From a virus (lineage: Duplodnaviria; Heunggongvirae; Uroviricota; Caudoviricetes), in IMG/VR virus record IMGVR_UViG_2703718818_000014, positions 1 to 11,010 of that record: DNA of 11,010 nt. The stretch is one strand, 5' to 3'. Of this stretch, positions 1 through 11,010 are shown one piece after another (positions within the stretch are counted from its first letter, which is position 1; each line of letters begins with the position of its first letter). A program made the translations under genes and the position numbers. Under the pieces are notes generated by a model that saw only the letters and a list, made by a program, of their open reading frames with translations, was not told where the DNA came from and did not search any database.

Positions 1-1242
1 ATGGCGAGAAAAACACCCCCATTAACCACAGTACAGATCAAAGCAGCCAGACCAGCAGAAAAGGAATACACCCTACAGGACGGCGGAGGGCTTTTTCTCC
101 TGATCAAACCGTCCGGATCAAAACTCTGGAGATTTTCCTACTACCGACCATCGGACAAAAAAAGAATATTGCTGAGTTTTGGATCGCTTGATGATGTTTC
201 CCTGGCTGATGCCAGAAAACGCCGTAGCGAGTACAGGGCGTTAATTCGTGCCGGAACTGACCCGCAGGACCACGAGAGGCAAAAAAGAGAGACAGAGGCC
301 CGAAGACAAGGGAACACGTTCGAAAATGTGGCAACAGCATGGTACCAGGTGAAAATCAGCCAGAATCTGGCCCCCAATACGATTAAAGACATCTGGCGAT
401 CGCTGGAAAAATATGTATTCCCGTTCATCGGCAACACGCCAATAGACACCCTGACCGCTCGCAGGTTCGTTGAGGTGCTTACCCCCATCAAGGAACGTGG
501 CAACCTGGAAACACTCAAACGGGTTTTACAGCGCGTTAATGAGGTAATGGATTACGCCGCCAACAGTGGGCTGATTGATGCCAATCCGGCTATGAATGTG
601 CGTAAGGCGTTCCCCTCCCCTGTAAAAAAACATATGCCAACAATCCGCCCCGAACAGCTGCCGGAGCTTATGCAGGCTTTATCAGTATCGGCAACAGAAC
701 GGCAGACCAGATTACTGATTGAATGGCAGTTACTGACCGTAACCCGTCCCGTTGAAGCATCGTCGGCACGCTGGGAAGAAATCGACATGGAAGCGCAACG
801 CTGGACCATACCCGCCGGACGCATGAAGATGCGCCGCGACCACGTTATCCCGCTTTGTGACCAGGCTATGGCAGTGCTGGAGGCTATGAAACCAATCAGC
901 CACCACCGCGATTATGTTTTCCCGAGTCTGAAAGACCCACAGCAGCCGATGAACAGCCAGACCGCTAACGCAGCATTACGACGCATGGGATTCGCTGGCG
1001 TGCTGGTGTCTCATGGATTACGCGCCATATTCAGCACAGCAGCGAACGAAGAAGGCTTTGAGCCGGACGTAATAGAGGCCGCACTTGCCCACGTCGACAC
1101 CAACGAAGTCAGACGGGCATACAACCGGAGCAACTACATAGAAAAACGCATCGTGCTTATGCGCTGGTGGGGCGAATTTGTCGAGGCTGCGGCGACGGGC
1201 GTAACCCTCGCCAGTGGTAAAAGGGGTATCCGAGCCGTTTAG
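1..1242 (+). CDS. int: Tyrosine site-specific integrase, P4 / CP4-57 IntA-like (413 aa)
   Basis: ATG at position 1, 413 codons. N-terminal ...GGGLFLLIKPSGSKLWRFSYY... typical of P4-family integrase arm-binding domains; C-terminal HGLRAIFST and RRAYNRSNY match the catalytic H-x-x-R and tyrosine nucleophile regions. Length equals the CP4-57 IntA class. Confidence 0.93.
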   Translation: MARKTPPLTTVQIKAARPAEKEYTLQDGGGLFLLIKPSGSKLWRFSYYRPSDKKRILLSFGSLDDVSLADARKRRSEYRALIRAGTDPQDHERQKRETEARRQGNTFENVATAWYQVKISQNLAPNTIKDIWRSLEKYVFPFIGNTPIDTLTARRFVEVLTPIKERGNLETLKRVLQRVNEVMDYAANSGLIDANPAMNVRKAFPSPVKKHMPTIRPEQLPELMQALSVSATERQTRLLIEWQLLTVTRPVEASSARWEEIDMEAQRWTIPAGRMKMRRDHVIPLCDQAMAVLEAMKPISHHRDYVFPSLKDPQQPMNSQTANAALRRMGFAGVLVSHGLRAIFSTAANEEGFEPDVIEAALAHVDTNEVRRAYNRSNYIEKRIVLMRWWGEFVEAAATGVTLASGKRGIRAV

Positions 1243-1264
1243 CTGTACAGAAAACCAGTAAAAA

Positions 1265-1297
1265 CTACGAAAACCATTTAAAACCGTCGTATAATTG
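1265..1297 (+). promoter_or_regulatory. Candidate sigma70 promoter (perfect -10 TATAAT at 1290-1295, weak -35)
   Basis: TATAAT hexamer at 1290-1295 in the int/alpA intergenic region; no convincing TTGACA-like -35 at 17 bp spacing, so weak. Confidence 0.25.
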
Positions 1298-1319
1298 CAT
1301 CACATTTAACGACGAGGCC

Positions 1320-1571
1320 TTGAAAAATGAAACTGTTAAGATGCAAACAAATTTCAGATGCAATTGCGACGGGCTGCAACTGGCCCTGATGGTTCAGCAT
1401 GAATTTTGGTCAACCTACGATCCGGAGGACAGAACGACGGCCCCATCAAAAAAACAGGTAGTAGATTTCCTGGTATCCCGTGGGGCTTCCAGAAATCTGG
1501 CTGTAAGTATTGATAAGGTTGTACGTCCGGCATCCATGAAGACCGGAGGCAGGCCAAAAAAATGGCGGTAA
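1320..1571 (+). CDS. Hypothetical small protein (83 aa from TTG 1320; first ATG at 1341)
   Basis: ORF ends 8 nt before a strong intrinsic terminator; no clear Shine-Dalgarno and no recognisable family, so the call is tentative. Confidence 0.3.
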   Translation: MKNETVKMQTNFRCNCDGLQLALMVQHEFWSTYDPEDRTTAPSKKQVVDFLVSRGASRNLAVSIDKVVRPASMKTGGRPKKWR

Positions 1572-1581
1572 CAATCCTGAA

Positions 1582-1605
1582 AGCGGCAGAAATGCCGCTT
1601 TTTTT
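1582..1605 (+). terminator. Rho-independent terminator
   Basis: Stem AGCGGCA / TGCCGCT (7 bp), loop GAAA, followed by a run of 7 T. Confidence 0.7.
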
Positions 1606-1633
1606 ATAAATCCCTTTCAAATCATCAATATAA

Positions 1634-1720
1634 AAAACGGTGTATACCGTTTAAAAACGGTGAGTACTGTTTTTCCCTGCATCCGATGATTTACCGTATT
1701 TCTCACCGGAATACACCGGA
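1634..1720. promoter_or_regulatory. Repeat-rich putative operator/promoter region upstream of alpA
   Basis: Direct repeat AAAAACGGTG at 1634-1643 and 1654-1663; palindrome ACGGTgtatACCGT at 1637-1650; direct repeat CACCGGA at 1704-1710 and 1714-1720; all within 100 bp upstream of the alpA start. Confidence 0.3.
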
Positions 1721-1738
1721 TTAATGAGGTAAATCACG

Positions 1739-1945
1739 ATGGAAGCAATCAAAAAAGTCATCTTTCGCCAGGAAGTAAAAAAACTTATCCACATCAAGGC
1801 AGACAGCACGCTTCAAAGCATGATCAACGCCGGAGAATTTCCGCAGGGTTTTCGCGTTGGTTTACGCCGTCGCGGATGGTATGAGGAAGACGTAATCGCA
1901 TGGATGAAAGAACGTGAGCAGGAAGCACGCGGAACGGCTGCGTAA
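1739..1945 (+). CDS. alpA: AlpA / Vis-family prophage transcriptional regulator (excisionase-like HTH), 68 aa
   Basis: ATG with GAGG Shine-Dalgarno 10 nt upstream. The segment MINAGEFPQGFRVGLRRRGWYEEDVIAWM matches the AlpA family signature (AGxFP ... G.R...W...I..W). Confidence 0.85.
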   Translation: MEAIKKVIFRQEVKKLIHIKADSTLQSMINAGEFPQGFRVGLRRRGWYEEDVIAWMKEREQEARGTAA

Positions 1946-2095
1946 TGGTGTGAGGCATAACACGATGAACATAACAAAAAGCGCCCCGTTGCCGGAACGC
2001 CCTTGTGAACAATTAACCTGCTGCGCCTTATGTGTATGTGATCCCAAACATAAGCACGGGAATGATAGCCGCTATCAGGCTGGTGGGCAATGTAA

Positions 2096-2275
2096 TTACC
2101 CTTTGGGTTCTATGCCGCGTTGCTGTAATTCTTTGCGGATTATTCGCTTTATCCAGGCAGCAAGAGAATCATCGCCGTCATGTTGTTGTGCCTTTTCCAT
2201 CTTTTCCCGTAAGTCAGGATCTAAACGGAACTGGAACGGAGGATTACCACGCCTTTCGTTTTTGTGTGTTGACAC
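2096..2275 (-). CDS. Small ribbon-helix-helix (Arc/MetJ-like) DNA-binding protein, paralogue 1 (59 aa, GTG start)
   Basis: My minus-strand translation: MSTHKNERRGNPPFQFRLDPDLREKMEKAQQHDGDDSLAAWIKRIIRKELQQRGIEPKG. Beta-strand / helix A / helix B pattern typical of RHH repressors. Below the length cutoff of the supplied ORF track. Paralogous to the ORF at 2780..2971, sharing start context and the C-terminal RGIEPKG. Confidence 0.45.
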   Translation of the reverse strand: MSTHKNERRGNPPFQFRLDPDLREKMEKAQQHDGDDSLAAWIKRIIRKELQQRGIEPKG

Positions 2276-2343
2276 GTTAATTACACCCCATGTAATGTAT
2301 TTATGTGTAGTGACACATTACAGACAATCAACACAAAAAGCAA

Positions 2344-2374
2344 AGCCCGCTGGAGCTATGAACACCAACGGGCT
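2344..2374. other. Conserved stem-loop A (minus-strand intrinsic-terminator-like; alternatively part of a small regulatory RNA)
   Basis: AGCCCG-c-TGG / CCA-a-CGGGCT stem. On the minus strand the stem is followed by TTTGCTTTTTGTG. Flanks AAAAAGCAAAGCCC ... GGGCTTCTAACC are shared with stem-loop B at 3043-3075, with compensatory changes inside the stem. Confidence 0.4.
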
Positions 2375-2494
2375 TCTAACCAAACCATTAATTGAGGTAA
2401 CGATTATGGCTATAAAAGAGCATAGCTTACTCTTTATACACACACAAACGCCCCGGAAACGGAATAATCCGTTTCATAGTTCGGTTTTGTGCAC

Positions 2495-2722
2495 TCATCC
2501 TGGCGGTCGGTTTTTGCCGGATTTAAGCCGCCGTGGGTATTTATCGACAAAATCTTCAAGGGCAAATTTTTCTGGTGGCACTAAGCGCGGCGCTGGTGGT
2601 GGTATTTTTGTTCTGGTTAGTTCTTCCTCAAGTCTGGCGCAGGCTTCTGACTGCCTTTGCCGGATGATTTCATCATCTTGCGTTTGCGTGTCTTGTATTG
2701 GTGATAGTGTGTTGTTGGTCAT
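2495..2722 (-). CDS. Hypothetical protein (75 aa)
   Basis: ATG start with AGGG 9 nt upstream; hydrophilic non-repetitive sequence; lies downstream of RHH paralogue 2 on the same strand and upstream of the minus-strand terminator-like stem-loop A. No family recognised. Confidence 0.35.
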   Translation of the reverse strand: MTNNTLSPIQDTQTQDDEIIRQRQSEACARLEEELTRTKIPPPAPRLVPPEKFALEDFVDKYPRRLKSGKNRPPG

Positions 2723-2779
2723 GATACTGCCCTGTAAAGCAATGCGCCGGAGTACCTCACACCACGGCGCTGATAGTTT

Positions 2780-2971
2780 TTATCCTTTGGGTTCTATACC
2801 GCGCCGCTTTAGTTCAGTGCGCCCCAACTCTTTAAGCCAGTTGGCTAGGCTTATGCCGTCGCTCTGTGCTTCTTTATCGAATTGCTCTTTTAGCTCTGGA
2901 GAAATTCGCATTCTGAATTGTGGGGATTGCCCGTCCCCTTTAGGGCTTTTATCGCGTTTGATTGTTGACAA
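2780..2971 (-). CDS. Small ribbon-helix-helix (Arc/MetJ-like) DNA-binding protein, paralogue 2 (63 aa from TTG 2971; alternative ATG at 2911 gives 43 aa)
   Basis: Translation ...STIKRDKSPKGDGQSPQFRMRISPELKEQFDKEAQSDGISLANWLKELGRTELKRRGIEPKG, collinear with paralogue 1 including N-terminal (M)ST.K. AGGTGA lies 4 nt upstream of the TTG. Confidence 0.45.
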   Translation of the reverse strand: MSTIKRDKSPKGDGQSPQFRMRISPELKEQFDKEAQSDGISLANWLKELGRTELKRRGIEPKG

Positions 2972-2972
2972 G

Positions 2973-3013
2973 TGGTCACCTATTGAATTAGCCTTTCTAT
3001 TGTTAGGTGACCA
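2973..3013. promoter_or_regulatory. 10-bp inverted repeat, candidate operator (TGGTCACCTA ... TAGGTGACCA)
   Basis: Perfect 10-bp inverted repeat at 2973-2982 and 3004-3013 between the RHH paralogue 2 start and stem-loop B. The analogous position in module A has a different inverted repeat (TGTAATGT 2291-2298 / ACATTACA 2315-2322). Confidence 0.35.
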
Positions 3014-3042
3014 CCTTAACACAAGAGCACTTAAAAAAGCAA

Positions 3043-3075
3043 AGCCCCGCAAGTGTCATTACCACTCGCAGGGCT
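3043..3075. other. Conserved stem-loop B (paralogue of stem-loop A)
   Basis: AGCCC-c-GCAAGTG / CACTCGC-a-GGGCT. Same flanking sequence as stem-loop A; on the minus strand followed by TTTGCTTTTTT. Confidence 0.4.
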
Positions 3076-3105
3076 TCTAACCAACAACGTAAACTAGGAG
3101 CCGTT

Positions 3106-3663
3106 ATGGTTGCTGTAAATCATATACCACACCTTGTACACACACAAACGGCCTTTGTGTGGCGTTTTCTGGCCCTGAATATCGGAGAAAAAAACCAGTT
3201 GATCGCCAGTGTCGAAAATAGCTATGATTCCCGCGCACCTCATAAAACGGGTGCCGGGATTGGCGTCCTGGGCAAAACTGAAGCGCATAACACGCGCCCC
3301 GCGTGTTTTTTTGTGCCGCATAGTCACACCTTATCAATGGTGGGCTGTACGGGGGCGGAGCAATCCGCGCCGGTTTCTTCAGTGTCCGGTTACGCCAACC
3401 CTGTACAGTCCGCCACCAGCGAAATTGGCGTTTCCGGTGGCGGTTATCTTAACCACACTGAGGAGGCTGCCAACATGGCTACTATCCCTACCCTTGTACA
3501 TTCTCAAACCGCCTTTCTCTGGCGCTTTATCATCTTTGGCGCGTCAGAACATCAAATCATCCACGTAACCGCCTGGACGGAACGCGAAGCGCGTAACCGT
3601 TGCCCGTCAGGTTGTGTTGCTGTATTTGCCGCTCGTATTCGTCAGGGGTCACATCATGCGTAA
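3106..3663 (+). CDS. Tandem small-protein paralogue units B1 and B2 in one open frame (possible Icd-like proteins); B2 may initiate independently at 3475
   Basis: ATG 3106 with AGGAG 5 nt upstream. An internal ATG at 3475 has GAGGAGG 9 nt upstream and encodes MATIPTLVHSQTAFLWRFIIFGASEHQIIHVTAWTEREARNRCPSGCVAVFAARIRQG. B1 begins MVAVNHIPHLVHTQTAFVWRF..., and the frame stays open from 3106 to 3663 across an internal terminator-like hairpin. Family assignment is from memory of the motif only. Confidence 0.4.
   Translation: MVAVNHIPHLVHTQTAFVWRFLALNIGEKNQLIASVENSYDSRAPHKTGAGIGVLGKTEAHNTRPACFFVPHSHTLSMVGCTGAEQSAPVSSVSGYANPVQSATSEIGVSGGGYLNHTEEAANMATIPTLVHSQTAFLWRFIIFGASEHQIIHVTAWTEREARNRCPSGCVAVFAARIRQGSHHA
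3289..3312 (+). terminator. Intrinsic terminator / attenuator inside the B1-B2 leader
   Basis: Stem AACACGCG / CGCGTGTT with a short loop, followed by a T run (GTTTTTTTG). Confidence 0.5.
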
Positions 3664-3949
3664 AAACCGCTTGCAAAAAATTATCACGGGGCTGTATGCT
3701 TCCCCCGTCGCCCACATGGCGACCGGGTTTGACAGCCTGAATAAATTGGCGGACAGCCGCCCATATCCGATAAGCGGTTTTTTTGTGTCCGTAAACCTAC
3801 CCATACCCGCATTATGGCGGGGCGTAACGGGGGAGCCTTTGCGCTCGCTGGTTTCCCAATTTGCCAGTCTGTCAACCCTGTTACGTCTCGCCACCATGTT
3901 TGACAGCGTAGTAGCGAGACTCCTTAACATTAAATTGGGAGCCTTTCAC

Positions 3950-4123
3950 ATGGCTGTATCCGCACGCCCTTACTTTGTCTGGCGCTTTATGCAGTGCCAC
4001 CACAGCAACATTGATGTATTCACCGTTACCGCAGCCACTGAACGCGAAGCCCGCGCCCAGCTGCCGCACGCACATCTGATTCTTGTCGCCCGTATTCGTC
4101 AGGGGAAAACCTATGCACAATAA
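3950..4123 (+). CDS. Small-protein paralogue unit B3 (57 aa; possible Icd-like); frame is open upstream to ATG 3656
   Basis: ATG 3950 with GGGAG 8 nt upstream; MAVSARPYFVWRFMQCHHSNIDVFTVTAATEREARAQLPHAHLILVARIRQGKTYAQ shares F.WRF, TEREAR and ARIRQG with unit B2. The upstream in-frame extension (3656-3949) is homologous to the B1-B2 leader at nucleotide level but in a different reading frame, which argues it is non-coding. Confidence 0.45.
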   Translation: MAVSARPYFVWRFMQCHHSNIDVFTVTAATEREARAQLPHAHLILVARIRQGKTYAQ

Positions 4124-4373
4124 AACCACACCGGACGCAGCAGCCGCCGCGCTCACTACGCTGATGCATGCGCTGATTGATATTTCTGTTATTGCTGACA
4201 GGGCGCATAAGCACGCCACCAGTGAAACAGAATATGCTGGGGCTTTCGTTCCTCATTCGCTGGCGGTTATGCAACTTAGTGCGGATATGGCGCTGAATGA
4301 GGCCAAAGCCATCCTGATTGCTGATTGTGAAAATGGGGGGGGGTTATGCGTGATGATCGTTTTAATTCCCTGA
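4113..4373 (+). CDS. Hypothetical small protein (86 aa)
   Basis: First ATG of the frame, overlapping the stop of unit B3; first gene of a tightly packed run of small ORFs leading into the primase gene. Contains a G9 homopolymer near its 3' end. Confidence 0.4.
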   Translation: MHNKTTPDAAAAALTTLMHALIDISVIADRAHKHATSETEYAGAFVPHSLAVMQLSADMALNEAKAILIADCENGGGLCVMIVLIP

Positions 4374-4567
4374 AACAGGAATTTTCCGGCGTTCCTGATG
4401 ATGCGGTTGATGCGCTTTCGTTAATATCTGAAATTATGCGGGTGGCTTTTTTCTTTCTTTGCACTGATGAGCACAGAGATACAGGGCTAAATATTCTTGA
4501 TATTGCCGCTAACTATGCCGATTTCGTGACAGAAGCTGTTTTAAGAAAAACAACGGACGGGGATTAA
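4346..4567 (+). CDS. Hypothetical small protein (73 aa)
   Basis: ATG 4346 immediately after the G9 run, which doubles as its Shine-Dalgarno; overlaps the preceding ORF by 28 nt. Confidence 0.45.
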   Translation: MRDDRFNSLKQEFSGVPDDAVDALSLISEIMRVAFFFLCTDEHRDTGLNILDIAANYADFVTEAVLRKTTDGD

Positions 4568-4568
4568 T

Positions 4569-4802
4569 ATGCGTGATATTTATCTTGAAACAATAGACCG
4601 CGCATTTCTTGCACTTTCTCACAGTGAAAACATGCTGGAAATATTGCGCATATGGCTTGAAACACTTGGCGACAATGAACGCGACAAACAAAAATCAAGA
4701 ATTGCCACGGCATTAATAACGCTTCTTGAGCCTGTAATAATGGAACTGCAAGAAATAGATCTATTGCACGACAGATATAAAGAACAGCACACCGGAGAAT
4801 AA
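4569..4802 (+). CDS. Hypothetical small protein (77 aa)
   Basis: ATG 2 nt after the previous stop, preceded by GGACGGGGA; acidic helical-looking sequence. Confidence 0.5.
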   Translation: MRDIYLETIDRAFLALSHSENMLEILRIWLETLGDNERDKQKSRIATALITLLEPVIMELQEIDLLHDRYKEQHTGE

Positions 4803-4807
4803 AAATA

Positions 4808-5107
4808 ATGAAACTTAAATATTCTGGCTTAACTGCCAGTGGCAACACTCACCCTAAATTTACGCGCGGTGATATTTACCGCGACCAGTACGGCGGCACG
4901 GTAATGATTAAGGGCGTGGAAGAACGGCGTGTAACCTACCGCCGTGAAGGTTACGAATATGATTGCGTGATGCCTGTTTATCAGTTCCGGCGTGATTTTT
5001 CTCTGGTACAGACCGCGCCGCATAACGTGCCCACCAGCAACGCCAGGGCACGGGCAAACATCCAGAAGCTGAAAACCATGATTAACGGATTCAGGGGTAA
5101 AAAATGA
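4808..5107 (+). CDS. Hypothetical small protein (99 aa), translationally coupled to the primase gene
   Basis: ATG 4808 with GGAGA upstream; its stop overlaps the primase start in an ATGA arrangement. Resembles from memory small conserved proteins found beside primase genes in P4-like islands (unverified). Confidence 0.5.
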   Translation: MKLKYSGLTASGNTHPKFTRGDIYRDQYGGTVMIKGVEERRVTYRREGYEYDCVMPVYQFRRDFSLVQTAPHNVPTSNARARANIQKLKTMINGFRGKK

Positions 5108-6858
5108 AACTGGCACCGAACGTAAAACAGCAGTCACGCGGCATAAAACACAAAGGAACAGAAGTCATTATTTTTGCGGGTAGTGATGCCTGGGCACACG
5201 CGAAACAATGGCAGGAACATGATGCGCGTATGGCCGGAGATAATGAGCCTCCTGTGTGGCTTGGGGAGCAGCAGTTATCAGAGCTGGATAAGCTGCAAAT
5301 TGTGCCGGAAGGCAGAAAATCCGTGCGCATATTCAGGGCCGGATATCTTGCGCCAGTAATGATAAAGGCGATTGGCCAGAAGCTGGCGGCGGCAGGCGTA
5401 CAGGATGCAAATTTTTACCCTGATGGTATGCACGGTCAGAAGGTGGAGAACTGGCGCGAATATCTGGCCCGTGAGCGCCAGAATCTTTCTGATGGTCTGG
5501 TCATTGAGCTTCCGGTAAAGCAAAAGGCGCAACTTTCGCAGATGGCGGACAGTGAGCGCGCGCAGCTGCTTGCCGATCGCTTTGATGGCGTTTGCGTACA
5601 TCCTGAAAGTGAAATCGTTCACGTATGGCGCGGCGGGGTATGGTGTCCGGTCAGCACAATGGAGCTTAGCCGCGAAATGGTGGCGATCTATTCAGAGCAC
5701 AGGGCCACTTTCAGCAAGCGCGTAATCAATAACGCCGTGGAAGCGTTAAAAGTTATTGCCGAACCAATGGGCGAGCCGTCCGGCGATTTGCTGCCGTTCG
5801 CCAATGGTGCGCTTGACCTGAAAACGGGGGAATTTTCCCCGCACACGCCGGAGAACTGGATCACCACGCACAACGGCATTGAGTACACGCCACCAGCACC
5901 AGGGGAGAACATCCGCGATAACGCGCCAAACTTTCATAAATGGCTTGAGCACGCAGCCGGAAAAGACCCGCGCAAGATGATGCGTATATGTGCCGCGCTG
6001 TACATGATTATGGCGAACCGGTACGACTGGCAGATGTTTATTGAGGCCACCGGAGACGGCGGGAGCGGTAAAAGTACATTCACGCACATAGCCAGCCTTC
6101 TGGCAGGGAAACAGAACACGGTAAGCGCTGAAATGACGTCGCTTGATGATGCTGGTGGACGTGCGCAGGTTGTCGGGAGTCGTCTTATCGTCCTGGCTGA
6201 CCAGCCGAAATATACAGGCGAAGGAACGGGCATCAAGAAAATCACGGGCGGTGACCCCGTGGAAATTAACCCGAAATACGAAAAGCGTTTCACGGCTGTA
6301 ATCAGGGCGGTGGTGCTGGCGACCAACAATAACCCGATGATATTCACCGAACGGGCCGGAGGTGTGGCACGTCGTCGCGTGATTTTCCGTTTCGACAATA
6401 TCGTCAGTGAGGCCGAAAAAGACAGGGAGCTACCGGAAAAGATTGCGGCTGAAATCCCTGTCATTATCCGCCGATTGCTGGCGAACTTTACCGACCCTGA
6501 GAAGGCACGGGCTTTACTACTGGAACAGCGTGACGGTGATGAAGCACTGGCAATAAAGCAACAGACGGATCCGGTTATTGAGTTTTGCCAGTTCCTGAAT
6601 TTTCTGGAGGAAGCACGCGGCCTGATGATGGGCGGCGGTGGCGATTCAGTGAAGTACACGACCAGAAACAGCCTTTACCGCGTCTATCTGGCGTTTATGG
6701 CGTACGCAGGCAGGAGCAAACCGCTAAACGTAAATGACTTTGGCAAGGCTATGAAGCCAGCCGCGAAAGTTTACGGACATGAATATATTACGCGGAAAGT
6801 TAAAGGAGTAACGCAGACTAACGCAATAACAACAGACGATTGCGACGCGTTTTTATAA
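5104..6858 (+). CDS. Replication protein: P4-alpha-family primase/helicase C-terminal-type P-loop NTPase (SF3/D5-like), 584 aa
   Basis: Walker A GDGGSGKST, Walker B-like RLIVLADQP and SF3 motif C VVLATNNNP in the C-terminal half; sits directly upstream of an iteron array. Confidence 0.85.
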   Translation: MKLAPNVKQQSRGIKHKGTEVIIFAGSDAWAHAKQWQEHDARMAGDNEPPVWLGEQQLSELDKLQIVPEGRKSVRIFRAGYLAPVMIKAIGQKLAAAGVQDANFYPDGMHGQKVENWREYLARERQNLSDGLVIELPVKQKAQLSQMADSERAQLLADRFDGVCVHPESEIVHVWRGGVWCPVSTMELSREMVAIYSEHRATFSKRVINNAVEALKVIAEPMGEPSGDLLPFANGALDLKTGEFSPHTPENWITTHNGIEYTPPAPGENIRDNAPNFHKWLEHAAGKDPRKMMRICAALYMIMANRYDWQMFIEATGDGGSGKSTFTHIASLLAGKQNTVSAEMTSLDDAGGRAQVVGSRLIVLADQPKYTGEGTGIKKITGGDPVEINPKYEKRFTAVIRAVVLATNNNPMIFTERAGGVARRRVIFRFDNIVSEAEKDRELPEKIAAEIPVIIRRLLANFTDPEKARALLLEQRDGDEALAIKQQTDPVIEFCQFLNFLEEARGLMMGGGGDSVKYTTRNSLYRVYLAFMAYAGRSKPLNVNDFGKAMKPAAKVYGHEYITRKVKGVTQTNAITTDDCDAFL

Positions 6859-6869
6859 TTTGTTGCAAT

Positions 6870-7100
6870 GGCTGTCTACCCTGTCTACCTGAGTAAAGAA
6901 AAATACATTTAATTCAGTACATTAACTTGGGTAGACAGCCTTTTTTTACTGTCTACCTACTATCTACCCTCTCTACCTGATTTTACCTGAATCAGACAGG
7001 GAGGTAGATACGGGGTAGATAGTGGATAAAAGCACTCTACCCCACTGAAAGCCGCGCCATTACTGGCATGGTGGCCAGTAAGGTAGATAAGGTAGACAAG
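6870..7100. repeat. Iteron array / candidate origin of replication
   Basis: At least 11 copies of the core TCTACC / GGTAGA (mostly as octamers TGTCTACC or GGTAGACA / GGTAGATA) in both orientations: 6873-6880, 6882-6889, 6930-6937, 6950-6957, 6961-6968, 6971-6977, 7003-7010, 7014-7021, 7035-7041, 7082-7089, 7091-7098. Perfect 12-bp inverted repeat GGCTGTCTACCC (6870-6881) / GGGTAGACAGCC (6929-6940) flanks an AT-rich spacer; further inverted repeat TTACTGGC / GCCAGTAA at 7060-7081. Confidence 0.7.
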
Positions 7101-7146
7101 GGGAGGCACAACTCAAAACTTTTTAAACGAGGGGGTAAAAATAAAA

Positions 7147-7404
7147 ATGCGCACATCAGGAAAACTTAATAATCAGAAGAAGCAGCATAACCGCGCCATT
7201 GACCTTACAGAGCACTGGCTGAGAGTGGCGATAAAAATCATCGACCGCAACACGGGGGAAGGATACGCGAAAGCACATCCCGAACTGATAAGCGCATTCA
7301 TGACCACGACGGCGGCAAACTTTGCCACGCTGACAGAACGGGAGATTGCCGAAGCGGAACAGGTAACAACCATCAACGTTAAAACCGGAGAGGTGGAATC
7401 ATGA
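7147..7404 (+). CDS. Hypothetical protein (85 aa), translationally coupled to ssb
   Basis: ATG 7147 with GAGGGGG upstream; its stop overlaps the SSB start (ATGA). Confidence 0.5.
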   Translation: MRTSGKLNNQKKQHNRAIDLTEHWLRVAIKIIDRNTGEGYAKAHPELISAFMTTTAANFATLTEREIAEAEQVTTINVKTGEVES

Positions 7405-7811
7405 CAGCACAGATAGCAGCTTACGGGCGGCTGGTGGACGACCCGCAGGTAAAACAGACCAGCAAGGGCACACCAATGACGCTGGCACGTATGGCGGTAT
7501 CGTTGCCATGTAGTCAGGCGCAGGATGGGCAGGCTACGTTATGGCTATCGGTGATGGCATTTGGTAAGCAGGCCGACTTCCTGGCTAAACATCAAAAAGG
7601 CGACGTTGCCAGCGTATCCGGCACGATGCAGGTCAGCCAGTGGACCGGACAGAACGGGGAAATGCGGCAGGGTTATCAGGTTATTGCAGACAGCGTAATC
7701 AGTGCCCGTGCGGCACGTCCTGGCGGGAACAGACGCAAAACCACAGGCACACAGGGTAATCAGCCACCAGCGGGAGACGATGACCCCTACGGTGATGATA
7801 TTCCGTTCTGA
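7401..7811 (+). CDS. ssb: Single-stranded DNA-binding protein (SSB) homologue, 136 aa
   Basis: Strong Shine-Dalgarno GGAGAGGTGGA; OB-fold-like pattern (GRLVDDPQV ... FGKQADFLAKHQKGDVASVSGTMQVSQWTGQNGEMRQGYQVIADSV); C-terminus DDDPYGDDIPF matches the SSB acidic tail (DDDIPF). Confidence 0.8.
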   Translation: MTAQIAAYGRLVDDPQVKQTSKGTPMTLARMAVSLPCSQAQDGQATLWLSVMAFGKQADFLAKHQKGDVASVSGTMQVSQWTGQNGEMRQGYQVIADSVISARAARPGGNRRKTTGTQGNQPPAGDDDPYGDDIPF

Positions 7812-7819
7812 ACGCACAG

Positions 7820-7841
7820 GCCGGAGAAAATCCGGCTTTTT
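7820..7841 (+). terminator. Rho-independent terminator after ssb
   Basis: GCCGGA gaaaa TCCGGC followed by TTTTT; almost identical to the hairpin at 9731-9753. Confidence 0.75.
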
Positions 7842-7845
7842 GTAT

Positions 7846-7893
7846 CCAAAAAAAGCCCGATAAGTACAGGAGGAAGCTTATCGGGCTTTTGCT
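7846..7893. terminator. Bidirectional terminator-like hairpin
   Basis: 11-bp perfect stem AGCCCGATAAG / CTTATCGGGCT (7853-7863 / 7877-7887) flanked by an A7 run upstream and TTTTGCTT downstream. Confidence 0.65.
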
Positions 7894-7964
7894 TACGAGG
7901 TTAACAGCATGGTGACTACTGTTGCTGTAAATTATTTCATAATTTGCAACGCAACTCAATTTCA

Positions 7965-8025
7965 TTGCACAAAATGCAATCATGATTATAATCACAACTG
8001 GATGAACATCCAGTTATGGTTTTTT
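7965..8025 (+). promoter_or_regulatory. Candidate promoter and leader hairpin of the capsid operon
   Basis: -35 TTGCAC (7965-7970), 16-bp spacer, perfect -10 TATAAT (7987-7992); directly downstream an 8-bp stem AACTGGAT / ATCCAGTT (7996-8015) followed by a T6 run (8020-8025). Confidence 0.3.
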
Positions 8026-8048
8026 AAGTCAAAGAGGAATTTCTGACT

Positions 8049-8255
8049 ATGGCTGAAGAGAAAAAAGGCGGTGTTTCGGTGTACATAAGCCCCGAAATCG
8101 TGGAGGTGCTCAAGCAGCGCCACAAAAAAAACTATGAGGCTGGCGTAGCGGCTGGACTGGATCCGCTGATGACGCCGGAGCCGTCGATAGGTTCACTTGT
8201 GCGCTCTTATTTACTTGCGGCGCTTGGGATGCATAAAAATTATGGGGGTGAATAA
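8049..8255 (+). CDS. Hypothetical protein (68 aa), first gene of the capsid operon
   Basis: ATG 8049 with AGAGGA upstream; its stop overlaps the capsid gene start (TAATG). No family recognised. Confidence 0.5.
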   Translation: MAEEKKGGVSVYISPEIVEVLKQRHKKNYEAGVAAGLDPLMTPEPSIGSLVRSYLLAALGMHKNYGGE

Positions 8256-9310
8256 TGACAGGCAAAGCAACGGCACTTAACACTAACCAGCTTTTCATGT
8301 ACCTGAATCGCGGGGATATTGCGGATTTTAAATTCAGCCCTCTGTTTACTACGCTGTTTTTCCCGAACGTGGCGACATTCAGCACGCAAAACATCATGCT
8401 GGACACCCTGGACATTGAAGAGGTTACGATGTCGGCGTTTTGTTCGCCTATGGTGGGTAGTCAGGTCCAGCGCGATAAAGGGTACGAAACCAGCACGATT
8501 AAACCTGGATACATGAAGCCGAAGCACGAAATCGATCCAACGAAAACCATCATGCGCATGGCCGGAGAAGATCCGGCACAGCTTAACGACCCTACCTATC
8601 GCCGTATGCGCCTGATTACTGGCAATATGCGCCGCCAGGTAAACGCCATAAAAGCGCGCGTGGAATGGCTGGCGGTAAATGCGGTAACGACCGGAAAAAA
8701 CATCATTGAGGGCGAAGGCATAGAACGCTATGAAATCGACTGGAAGATACCGGAAAAAAACATCATAGAGCAGGCCGACGGTAAAAAATGGTCTGAGCAG
8801 GATAAAGACATACACGACCCAATATATGACATTGAACTATACGCAGATCAGGCAGGTTGCCCCGCCAACGTCATGATTATGGGCGTTGATGTATGGCGCA
8901 TGTTACGCAGCTTTAAAAAATTCCGTGAACTGTACGATCTCTCCCGTGGTTCAGAATCCGCCGCAGAGCTGGCATGTAAAAACCTGGGCGAAGTGGTGAG
9001 CTTTAAAGGCTATCTTGGTGATCTGGCCCTTATCGTCTATTCCGGCAAATACACTGACAGCGACGGCACAGAAAAATATTTCCTTGAGCCTGATTTGCTG
9101 GTCCTGGGCAACACCAACAATAAAGGGCTGGTGGCCTATGGTGCGATTATGGAACAGGAAGCGGTAAGAACGGGCGCAACGCAAAACATGTTTTACCCGA
9201 AAAACTGGATTGAAGACGGCGATCCGGCGATTGAGTACGTGCAGACACACAGCGCACCGCAGCCTGTTCCGGCAGATATTCGAAAATTTGTTACCGTCAA
9301 AATTGGTTAA
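8255..9310 (+). CDS. Major capsid protein, phage lambda gpE family (351 aa)
   Basis: Collinear with lambda gpE as I remember it: FKFSPLFTTLFF vs FKFDPLFLRLFF; PGYMKPKHEIDPTKTIMR vs PGYVKPKHEVNPQMTLRR; DPTYRRMRLITGNMR vs DPAYRRRRIIMQNMR; C-terminal YPKNWIEDGDPAIEY vs YPKNWVTTGDPAREF. Length close to gpE (341 aa). Confidence 0.9.
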   Translation: MTGKATALNTNQLFMYLNRGDIADFKFSPLFTTLFFPNVATFSTQNIMLDTLDIEEVTMSAFCSPMVGSQVQRDKGYETSTIKPGYMKPKHEIDPTKTIMRMAGEDPAQLNDPTYRRMRLITGNMRRQVNAIKARVEWLAVNAVTTGKNIIEGEGIERYEIDWKIPEKNIIEQADGKKWSEQDKDIHDPIYDIELYADQAGCPANVMIMGVDVWRMLRSFKKFRELYDLSRGSESAAELACKNLGEVVSFKGYLGDLALIVYSGKYTDSDGTEKYFLEPDLLVLGNTNNKGLVAYGAIMEQEAVRTGATQNMFYPKNWIEDGDPAIEYVQTHSAPQPVPADIRKFVTVKIG

Positions 9311-9321
9311 CGGTGGATTCT

Positions 9322-9657
9322 ATGAACACTCCATACATTGAGTTATTTGCAGGCAGTCAGCAGGTATCAACGACACTGGTACATTTTGCCGCTGATGCTG
9401 GCGTTATTCAGGAATTTACCCCGCTGATGCTGGCGGACAATGGCGAGTTTAAGCCGTGGGATGGTCAGGAATCTGGCAAGGCTGTTTATCTGACCTCGTA
9501 CCCCGTTGACACGTCGACGCAGAAATCAGCACAGTGCTATAAGACGGGGATATTTAATATCGCCGCCGTTAACTGGCCTGAGAGCGTCGACACCGATGCG
9601 AAAAAATGCGCCGCCTTTGCGGGTTCTGGCGTATCCGTTCAGCCGCTGGCGCGATAA
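9322..9657 (+). CDS. Head decoration protein, phage lambda gpD family (about 111 aa; alternative GTG start at 9313)
   Basis: TPLMLADNGEFKPWDG vs lambda gpD TPLMLDTSSRKLVAWDG; YKTGIFNIAAVNWPESVDTDAKKCAAFAGSGVSV vs [35 protein letters not shown]. Sits immediately after the capsid gene. Confidence 0.85.
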   Translation: MNTPYIELFAGSQQVSTTLVHFAADAGVIQEFTPLMLADNGEFKPWDGQESGKAVYLTSYPVDTSTQKSAQCYKTGIFNIAAVNWPESVDTDAKKCAAFAGSGVSVQPLAR

Positions 9658-9730
9658 GCAGGGGGAACGATGGCAGAAAGCCGGGCGATGACGGCGACAT
9701 CGATCGCATACTGAAAACCATCTGAGACAG

Positions 9731-9753
9731 GCCGGAGAAATCCGGCTTTTTTT
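9731..9753 (+). terminator. Rho-independent terminator after the decoration gene
   Basis: GCCGGA gaaa TCCGGC followed by T7; same hairpin as 7820-7841. Confidence 0.75.
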
Positions 9754-9930
9754 ACGGGTCCTTTCCGGCATATGGACCCGTTACGGGGCGGCGACCTCGC
9801 GGTTTTTCGCTATTTATGAGCCTTTTCAGGGGGGTGGTGGTGGTTTTGTTGTTTGCTCTATCTTTATGAATGAAAAGGGAAAGATGCAAACAATACACCA
9901 ACCTGAAGCAGTAATTAAGTTGGTGTATTA
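9754..9930 (+). other. cos site 1: lambda-type cosQ-like/cosN region with a non-lambda cosB
   Basis: CCGTTACG-GGGCGGCGACCT-CGCGGTTTTTCGCTATTTATGA, with the 12-nt cohesive-end sequence at 9786-9797 matching lambda cosN and its right flank. Downstream there are no lambda R-sites; instead G6(TGG)3 at 9826-9840, inverted repeat TTGTTTGC / GCAAACAA, and 11-bp inverted repeat AATACACCAAC (9892-9902) / GTTGGTGTATT (9919-9929) abutting the terS start. Confidence 0.75.
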
Positions 9931-10473
9931 ATGAAATCGCACCTGATGAACAAAAAAAACATGGCGAAAAGCTGCCGTGTAAGTGCGACAGCGTTCGACA
10001 AGTGGGGAGTGACTCCCGTTGAACGTAAAGGCCGTGAGGCGTTTTATGATGTTGCCAGCGTGATAGACAATAGGGTTAACAATGCAATTAGCCAGCTTAC
10101 AAACGACAAAGGCGATATTGATGATGCTGAACTCTTACGAGTCAGGATCAGATTACTGACAGCACAGGCGGAGGCGCAGGAACTTAAAAACGAGCGCGAT
10201 CGCGGTGACGTGATTGATACTGAGTTTTGCCTGTACGCGCTTTCAAAGCTGGCGAGTCAGATTTCATCAATCATGGACAGCCTCCCGCTTAATATGCAAA
10301 GGAGCTTCCCACAGATTCCCCCCGCCATGCTGGACAGGCTTAAAAGGGAAGTGGTTAAAGCCTGTAATGGCAGTGCCAGAGTTGCCGACAACCTCCCACA
10401 GATACTGGCTGATTACTTGAAAGAAACAACCGGAAACGTACCGGAAAAGTTGCTACAGAAGAAAGGCGAGTAA
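9931..10473 (+). CDS. Terminase small subunit, lambda gpNu1 family (180 aa; homologous start may be ATG 9946)
   Basis: C-terminal two-thirds collinear with lambda Nu1: LTAQAEAQELKNERDRGDVIDTEFCLYALSKLASQISSIMDSLPLNMQRSFP vs LTRAQADAQELKNARDSAEVVETAFCTFVLSRIAGEIASILDGLPLSVQRRFP. The N-terminal DNA-binding region is recognisably related but far more divergent. No obvious Shine-Dalgarno at either start. Confidence 0.88.
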   Translation: MKSHLMNKKNMAKSCRVSATAFDKWGVTPVERKGREAFYDVASVIDNRVNNAISQLTNDKGDIDDAELLRVRIRLLTAQAEAQELKNERDRGDVIDTEFCLYALSKLASQISSIMDSLPLNMQRSFPQIPPAMLDRLKREVVKACNGSARVADNLPQILADYLKETTGNVPEKLLQKKGE

Positions 10474-10479
10474 CCGCAG

Positions 10480-10697
10480 CGCAATTATTGAACAAAACTG
10501 AGAAACGACATGAAAGCGTCATAAATCGCCATTTCAGATGATTACCGTGTCGTTTCTTTTTATTGTGTATCTATTTAAAAACAAATAGTTATGTTCGAGA
10601 AGTACCGACATGATTTTTCCAGAAAAATTTTCATAAACAGATAAAAACCGCGAGGTCGCCGCCCCGTAACGGGCCATAATTCCAGGAAGGACCCGAC
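10480..10697 (-). other. cos site 2 (inverted): lambda-type cosQ-like/cosN with lambda-like cosB (R3-, R2-, R1-like elements)
   Basis: Reverse complement of 10653-10664 is GGGCGGCGACCT. The minus strand reads CCCGTTACG-cosN-CGCGGTTTTT...TTTATGAAAATTTTT...TCGGTACTTCTCGAACATAACT...AAAAAGAAACGACACGG...CTGAAATGGCGA...CATGTCGTTTCTCAGTTTTGTTCAATAATTG, collinear with the lambda left end through R3, R2 and R1 up to where the Nu1 ATG would be. There it meets the 3' end of the plus-strand terS. Confidence 0.75.
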
Positions 10698-10728
10698 GAC
10701 ACCAGACTATCAGAACGATGGGGGCACA

Positions 10729-11010
10729 ATGACAGAAGCCGAACTACTGCGATTAATCCGTCGCGTTGCCGGAATCAGCCAGCAGGCTGACGAACAGGCC
10801 ACGCAGCCGGACAGCGTGACCGCCGAAAATTATGCGCGTGTGGTTGCTGAGGTGATGCGCCGTGACGGTATTGAGCTTAACGGCGTGGATATGCGCGACA
10901 TACGGATCCGCGTTCTGGAAATGCTGGCCTACAATCGCCGCGTTGAACTGTATCGGGAGAAAGAAAAAATTACGTACCACTGGAAGAAGCCGGAGCGGTT
11001 ACGGCGATAA
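10729..11010 (+). CDS. Hypothetical protein (93 aa)
   Basis: ATG 10729 with GGGGG upstream; stop is the last codon of the window. Arg-rich C-terminus; no family recognised. Confidence 0.5.
   Translation: MTEAELLRLIRRVAGISQQADEQATQPDSVTAENYARVVAEVMRRDGIELNGVDMRDIRIRVLEMLAYNRRVELYREKEKITYHWKKPERLRR

Follow-up and report, generated by a model that had tools for sequence, protein, structure and literature searches.

The 288-bp spacer immediately 3' of the pri gene in this E. coli phage satellite is already known: it has been published as the ori of Gram-negative phage-inducible chromosomal islands (PICIs), and experiments on the identical sequence were reported in 2018 (Fillol-Salom et al. 2018, ISME J, PMC6092414). 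The window, by which we mean the whole 11,010-bp stretch of viral DNA analysed here, carries this spacer at 6859-7146, where 288 of 288 positions are identical to EcCICFT073 (1383996-1384283 of the CFT073 chromosome, NC_004431.1, from which that island was taken). We therefore consider it very probable that 6859-7146 is the vegetative replication origin of an EcCICFT073-type Gram-negative PICI. Since the same 288 bp have been mapped and found to be needed for replication in EcCICFT073, the feature itself is ordinary. What is added here is a map of the origin's anatomy, with its iteron consensus cTRTCTACCY, its five mirror pairs about the axis 6985/6986 and a conserved block that is not an iteron, together with direct evidence that the replication modules of PICIs and phage P4 are homologous.

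The island and its published origin

The window is a Gram-negative PICI. It carries int, alpA and pri, co-oriented, is about 11 kb long, contains two cosN sites and has a chromosomal att site. The genes and the spacer that matter for the argument are as follows.

1-1242: tyrosine integrase with an arm-binding domain
1739-1945: AlpA-like HTH regulator
4808-5107: DUF4222 protein
5104-6858, + strand: pri, encoding a 584-aa 'primase family' protein (Pri)
6859-7146, no strand assigned: the whole intergenic ori region
7147-7404, + strand: ORF85 (phrog_1231), co-oriented with pri
7401-7811, + strand: SSB (Pfam SSB, E=1.8e-16)
8255-9310: λ E-like major capsid protein
9313-9657: λ D-like decoration protein
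9931-10473: Nu1-like protein

The origins of E. coli PICIs have been described as iterons around an AT-rich region, located immediately 3' of the initiator gene (PMC6092414), and the spacer in the window has both the position and the arrangement of the EcCICFT073 pri-ori. In the published experiments, a thermosensitive plasmid carrying pri-ori gave rise to colonies at 44 °C, whereas the pri-Δori and Δpri-ori constructs gave significantly fewer; for the ori deletion, colony numbers are reported as 'significantly reduced', and abolition is not stated there (PMC6092414). The first-pass annotation, made from the sequence alone, had read the repeats as an iteron origin on which the product of the neighbouring gene acts, which agrees with the requirement of this sequence for plasmid maintenance in EcCICFT073. 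The autonomous-replication assay of pri plus this region that it recommended had, in substance, already been carried out on the identical sequence.

On the window, the published forward primer falls at 5060-5080 and the Δori reverse primer at 6842-6862, while the pri-ori reverse primer corresponds to about 7149-7169, matching there except for one G missing in the text copy and thus giving no gapless match. From these positions, the published Δori deletion equals window 6863-7169 and covers all 11 iterons. Besides the iterons, the cloned pri-ori fragment holds a conserved GC-rich block and the beginning of the ORF that follows, so that these constructs prove neither sufficiency nor necessity of the iterons by themselves.

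The window and EcCICFT073 share the flanking gene order DUF4222-pri-ORF85-SSB, the lambda E/D-like capsid genes and two cos sites, and their Pri proteins are 99.3% identical (4 of 584 residues differ). The exact lambda cosN (GGGCGGCGACCT) occurs twice in the window, at 9786-9797 on the + strand and at 10653-10664 on the - strand; the two copies flank the Nu1-like gene and correspond to cos.1 and cos.2 of EcCICFT073 as published. The islands differ in that EcCICFT073 has another ORF where the window has the Nu1-like gene, and in their integrases and insertion sites. Table S1 of PMC6092414 places EcCICFT073 at ycfD-phoQ, and EcCIATCC25922 and EcCIED1a.1 at the yejM/tRNA-Pro site. The integrase and insertion site of the window are those of the yejM/tRNA-Pro group, which includes the latter two islands, and strains such as E. 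coli Nissle 1917 have the same island next to tRNA-Pro, between yejM and yejO. The order pri-ORF85-SSB is identical in all annotated relatives, and ORF85 and SSB (7147-7811) probably belong to the same replication module as pri.

Compared over its full length with EcCICFT073, the window is a mosaic in which only 4291-9826 and 10618-11010 align. The replication and capsid modules are 91-96% identical, while the integrase and regulatory left arm (1-4290) and the Nu1-like region (9827-10617) have no alignment to that island. The complete E. coli genomes in our collection each cover at most 82% of the window.

Anatomy of the repeat cluster

The window contains 11 copies of the hexamer TCTACC (6 on the + strand, 5 on the - strand), all of them inside 6875-7096. 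The cluster spans 222 bp, and there are zero copies elsewhere in the 11 kb from int to the far cos site. In 200 dinucleotide-preserving shuffles of the whole window, the expectation was 2.5 copies (sd 1.5, maximum 7), and none of the 200 reached 11. The earlier count of at least 11 copies of TCTACC or GGTAGA, in both orientations and next to the replication gene, is thus borne out, the number being exactly 11. The stop codon of pri occupies 6856-6858 and iteron 1 starts 15 bp past it, at 6873; from there the elements of the origin follow one another in this order.

6873-6889, + strand: iterons 1 and 2, TGTCTACC c TGTCTACC, direct and 9 bp apart; core kept in 59 of 61 unique relatives
6890-6928, no strand assigned: AT-rich stretch of 39 bp, 79% A+T, between iterons 2 and 3; AT-rich in all aligned relatives
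6930-6937, - strand: iteron 3, TGTCTACC, within the right arm of a perfect 12-bp inverted repeat
6950-6977, + strand: iterons 4, 5 and 6 (TGTCTACC, TATCTACC, TCTCTACC), with spacings of 11 and 9 bp
6977-6995, no strand assigned: centre of dyad symmetry, axis 6985/6986, with the small inverted repeat CTGATT-N7-AATCAG
7003-7021, - strand: iterons 7 and 8, TATCTACC twice, 11 bp apart; TCTAC kept in 61 of 61 unique relatives
7034-7041, + strand: iteron 9, ACTCTACC
7043-7072, no strand assigned: conserved GC-rich block CACTGAAAGCCGCGCCATTACTGGCATG, which contains the left arm (TTACTGGC) of an 8-bp inverted repeat
7082-7098, - strand: iterons 10 and 11 (TATCTACC, TGTCTACC), 9 bp apart, mirroring iterons 2 and 1

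Alignment of the 11 copies gives the consensus cT(G/A)TCTACC(C/T), i.e., cTRTCTACCY, and within runs on the same strand the spacing is 9 or 11 bp. Four octamers make up the set, TGTCTACC (five copies), TATCTACC (four), TCTCTACC and ACTCTACC (one each). The octamer named by the first-pass annotation was TGTCTACC; its TCTACC core holds for the whole array, but as a description of the iteron it is over-specific, occurring in only 5 of the 11 copies.

Ten of the 11 iterons form five exact mirror pairs (1/11, 2/10, 3/9, 4/8 and 5/7) about a single axis at 6985/6986. The core coordinates of each pair sum to 13971, the long inverted repeats I1 and I2 are centred on the same axis, and the axis coincides with the inverted repeat CTGATT-N7-AATCAG. 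The perfect 12-bp inverted repeat around an AT-rich spacer that had been noticed earlier is present as described, its arms being GGCTGTCTACCC at 6870-6881 and GGGTAGACAGCC at 6929-6940. The 47 bp between the arms consist of iteron 2 and the AT-rich 39 bp, the latter with 79% A+T against 50% for the whole window, and we presume that this stretch is the melting site.

A further 8-bp palindrome had also been reported. A search of the repeat region for a contiguous self-complementary 8-mer found none, and what was probably meant are the two 8-bp arms of an inverted repeat, TTACTGGC at 7060-7067 and GCCAGTAA at 7074-7081, which a 6-nt loop separates; only the left arm is conserved in relatives. That arm belongs to the GC-rich block at 7043-7072, which hardly varies among the 61 unique origins, whichever of the two iteron alleles described below they carry, while the adjoining spacer diverges. 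Strings like CACTGAAAGCCGCGCCATTACTGGCATG also occur among quite different repeats 3' of an alpha-like gene in Aeromonas tecta (L011).

A scan of 6700-7300 found no sigma-70-like promoter, and its single terminator-like site lies inside ORF85 on the opposite strand. DnaA boxes are not enriched (12 found against 9.5 expected), and the lone 8/9 match within the ori, at 7021-7029, is not conserved in relatives. A plasmid-type iteron theta origin of the RepA/Pi/TrfA kind was considered and rejected on this lack of DnaA-box enrichment and on the nature of the initiator, which is an SF3 helicase and not a Rep_3 protein. Rfam gave no matches in the ori; all its matches in the window lie at 3235-3898. 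These gathering-score matches comprise isrK (3235-3311), C4 antisense RNA (3333-3420 and 3810-3898) and a c4-a1b1 target (3694-3743), and together they make up, in the Icd-like region, an RNA immunity module of the P4/P1 type. Similar RNA matches in Gram-negative PICIs have been mentioned before (PMC10111431).

Pri and its homologues in P4 and SaPIs

As judged from its sequence, Pri is the initiator, combining an SF3 helicase with a predicted C-terminal origin-binding domain. Its Pfam domains are D5_N (residues 153-282), DUF5906 (316-417, the SF3 P-loop region) and Pox_D5 (487-575). The protein is homologous to two characterised origin-binding SF3 initiators. Residues 141-573 align to residues 324-756 of the P4 α protein with 41% identity over 434 aa (E=1e-112), and SaPI5 PriRep, whose cryo-EM structure is 7OLA, is matched by residues 194-432 (E=3.8e-15). 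In addition, phmmer matched residues 488-576 to the origin-binding domain of P4 α, for which a crystal structure exists (1KA8, E=1.1e-6). Two features can be placed on the window from these comparisons.

6565-6831, + strand: predicted winged-helix origin-binding domain, codons 488-576, from the 1KA8 match
6730-6774, + strand: predicted third (recognition) helix, codons 543-557, corresponding to helix 64-78 of a low-confidence AF2 model, where local pLDDT is highest

The second of these comes from a single-sequence AlphaFold2 model of Pri 480-584 with a mean pLDDT of 61.5, of which we used only the helix boundaries, as a weak indication. A Foldseek search of the PDB with this model gave no match at E<=0.001, the best hits being ORC/Cdc6 winged helices at E>2. 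The model is poor, and it is the sequence match that ties Pri to 1KA8.

The first-pass annotation had called pri a primase/helicase gene, and the helicase half of that name is sound, since an SF3 helicase is present. The primase half is a database label. No primase domain was detected in Pri, residues 1-150 of which match no Pfam or NCBIfam family, and a direct alignment gave no counterpart of α residues 1-323, the primase-carrying part. Without that part of α, 'primase' in the name of Pri is an inherited family label and not a domain finding. The N-terminal 140 residues (window 5104-5523) are the most variable part of the protein among relatives and have only a weak PHROG match, to phrog_1139.

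The P4 system resembles that of the window in having an initiator homologous to Pri and octameric repeats in both orientations. In the annotated P4 record, crr lies immediately downstream of α and ori is separate, with 16 'ori type 1 repeats' in total, 11 of which are exactly TGTTCACC. The repeats were read from this record, as a literature search for TGTTCACC returned unrelated primer sequences only. The first-pass annotation had referred to type I iterons bound by α in ori and crr, and the record agrees; its remark that the window octamer is two positions away is likewise correct, TGTCTACC and TGTTCACC differing at positions 4 and 5. Its view of an initiator analogous to α with a different specificity is in line with the homology of Pri to both the helicase and the origin-binding part of α.

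In P4, as in the window, a repeat cluster lies directly 3' of the initiator gene. The similarity extends to the arrangement of the repeats, as a crr unit read in the direction of α has the pattern −, +, (+), + / 35-bp spacer / −, −, which is the same pattern as that of iterons 3 to 8 of the window. However, the two systems differ in several respects. The P4 octamer is TGTTCACC and that of the window TRTCTACC; P4 has ori and crr 4.5 kb apart, whereas the window has one cluster; the 120-bp tandem duplication of crr has no equivalent, a search of the window having found no 120-bp direct repeat; and Pri lacks the N-terminal primase domain of α. For these reasons membership of the P4 system was rejected, and the PICI origin is best seen as a homologue of the α-proximal repeat region of P4 with another octamer. 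PICIs and P4 are treated in PMC6092414 as independently evolved elements; the alignments given here bear directly on the homology of their replication modules.

The Rep proteins of SaPIs are helicases that load themselves; through a C-terminal winged-helix domain they bind to iterons placed around an AT-rich centre immediately 3' of rep. Pri has a homologous SF3 ATPase and, by prediction, the C-terminal winged-helix domain, and the window ori has the same layout of 6-12 short iterons directly 3' of the gene, with opposite orientations on the two sides of an AT-rich region. Pri and the window ori thus follow the SaPI-type Rep/ori plan, iteron binding being predicted. The differences are the Gram-positive host of the SaPIs, their unrelated iteron sequences, a similarity that is detected in the ATPase domain only, and the placement of the AT-rich region, which is roughly central in SaPI origins but sits between iterons 2 and 3 of 11 in the window. 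A more distant parallel is offered by the core origins of SV40 and the papillomaviruses, where dyad-symmetric short repeats lie by an AT-rich element and an SF3 helicase binds its own origin. The five mirror pairs of the window fit that logic, as an analogy and without a claim of homology.

The broader comparison of α-like genes draws on P4, Morganella, Serratia and Aeromonas. An α-like gene of Morganella is followed by 11 TGTTCAT repeats that begin ++ / AT-rich / −, like iterons 1 to 3 of the window. At most of the α-like loci of Pantoea and Erwinia, no clear repeat family was found in the 420 bp 3' of the gene.

Relatives, origin alleles and other readings of the repeats

The spacer is present in 564 of 5,426 complete E. 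coli genomes. E. coli genomes, IMG/VR contigs and a single Shigella genome together yielded 90 Pri/ori pairs, and all 90 origins contain 9-12 repeats with the TCTAC core. Loss of the iterons from otherwise collinear relatives had been named in the first-pass annotation as an observation that would count against an origin; every one of the 90 keeps them. Among the 61 unique origins, conservation averages 0.91 in the iteron core columns and 0.73 in the other columns of 6873-7098 (Mann-Whitney p=2.5e-11). Between flanks that are 94-100% identical, the identity of the ori drops to 44-76% while the positions of the iterons are kept, as expected for a protein-binding array and not for a neutral spacer.

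The origins fall into two alleles. The T allele has iterons of the form T(G/A)TCTACC and the layout ++/AT/−/+++/−−/+/−−, and the C allele has C(C/A/T)TCTACC (CNTCTACC) and the layout ++/AT/−−/++/−−/+/−−.

Three other functions for the repeats were weighed against an origin. P4 crr, the α-proximal repeat cluster, is an enhancer with the start site of replication elsewhere. The cluster in the window is placed like crr, immediately 3' of an α homologue, and its central layout resembles a crr unit; it could accordingly be a cis-acting replication enhancer from which Pri would loop to the true origin elsewhere in the island. Such an arrangement calls for a second cluster, and the 11-kb window has no TCTACC outside the one described, nor a direct duplication like the 120 bp of crr. 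Moreover, pri and this region by themselves sustained a plasmid (PMC6092414), and we regard the enhancer reading as quite improbable. Slightly less probable again is that the repeats are mainly operators, used by Pri or by a different protein of the island or the helper to control the downstream SSB, capsid and packaging genes. Initiators of iteron replicons commonly autoregulate, the array does lie between pri and co-oriented downstream genes, and the non-iteron block at 7043-7072 shares the spacer with a conserved stretch by the ribosome-binding site. Against this stand the lack of a sigma-70-like promoter or terminator in the scanned 6700-7300, the impaired replication that follows deletion of the region (PMC6092414), and the description of Gram-negative PICIs as unidirectional operons driven from upstream (PMC10111431). 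A regulatory role that coexists with origin function is possible.

Among the products of the island are a Nu1-like protein and an integrase that has an arm-binding domain, and both classes of protein bind short repeats; the cluster might accordingly also be imagined as a packaging (cos/pac) site for the Nu1-like small terminase or as a set of arm-type integrase sites. The exact lambda cosN copies are by the Nu1-like gene, the att sites are at the ends of the island, and the iteron allele goes with the 3' end of pri and not with int or terS. With cosN and att located elsewhere, this reading is effectively refuted.

With the spacer taken as a replication origin, its use may be pictured as follows. 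Upon induction by a helper phage and excision of the island, Pri would be made, and its C-terminal domains would bind the 11 cTRTCTACCY iterons, without ATP if the homology to P4 α and SaPI Rep is a guide. Judging from the layout of the iterons, Pri oligomers would be placed in opposite orientation on both sides of the AT-rich 39 bp. By analogy, this stretch would then melt and helicase hexamers would load themselves, and the mirror symmetry makes it probable that there would be one for each direction. The island SSB, encoded just 3', and host enzymes could then complete the fork, as in the SaPI Rep and P4 α systems. The studies of P4 α behind this scheme are reportedly those of Ziegelin et al. 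in 1993 and 1995 and of Yeo et al. in 2002.

The two alleles of the origin are associated with a small part of Pri. In 79 unique gene/ori pairs, only 3 of the 201 variable Pri columns predict the ori allele, namely 544 (accuracy 0.99), 545 (0.91) and 547 (0.99), whereas every other column reaches at most 0.72 against a baseline of 0.54. Depending on the allele, residue 544 is N or A, residue 545 is D or E, and residue 547 is G or S. Winged-helix proteins usually recognise DNA through their third helix. In the alignment with the α origin-binding domain, the three residues fall at the beginning of this helix, and in the low-confidence model they lie in helix 543-557. However, synonymous sites at 6732-6828 predict the allele equally well, the association starting abruptly at 6732. 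In addition, a T-type origin stands next to a C-type helix (NVAEFSKAM) in a single one of the 90 relatives (L052; IMGVR_UViG_3300029303_000153, about 3100-3550). Either this contig arose by natural recombination, and would then speak against a strict specificity of the alleles, or it is a chimera produced in metagenome assembly. Given the linked synonymous sites and this exception, co-adaptation is inseparable from a shared haplotype block and is not claimed. At the level of sequence, the data describe a recombining haplotype block of helix plus ori, and they indicate that the origin module is exchanged between islands in the manner of a cassette.

A more speculative proposal, which we hold to be possible but rather doubtful, is that E. 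coli PICIs comprise two specificity (incompatibility) groups, N544-D545-x-G547 with T-type iterons and A544-E545-x-S547 with C-type iterons, swapped as a helix-plus-ori cassette of ~400 bp, and that the mirror pairs are a platform for two opposed Pri hexamers. If so, two PICIs in one cell could replicate without cross-talk, and the suggested role of three residues in iteron specificity might be useful in the design of compatible synthetic PICI or P4 delivery vectors. The divergence of the origin can be followed along window 6679-7146 in comparisons with three relatives (L002, L005 and L058), where the last ~180 bp of pri are 88-92% identical and the ori 44-76%.
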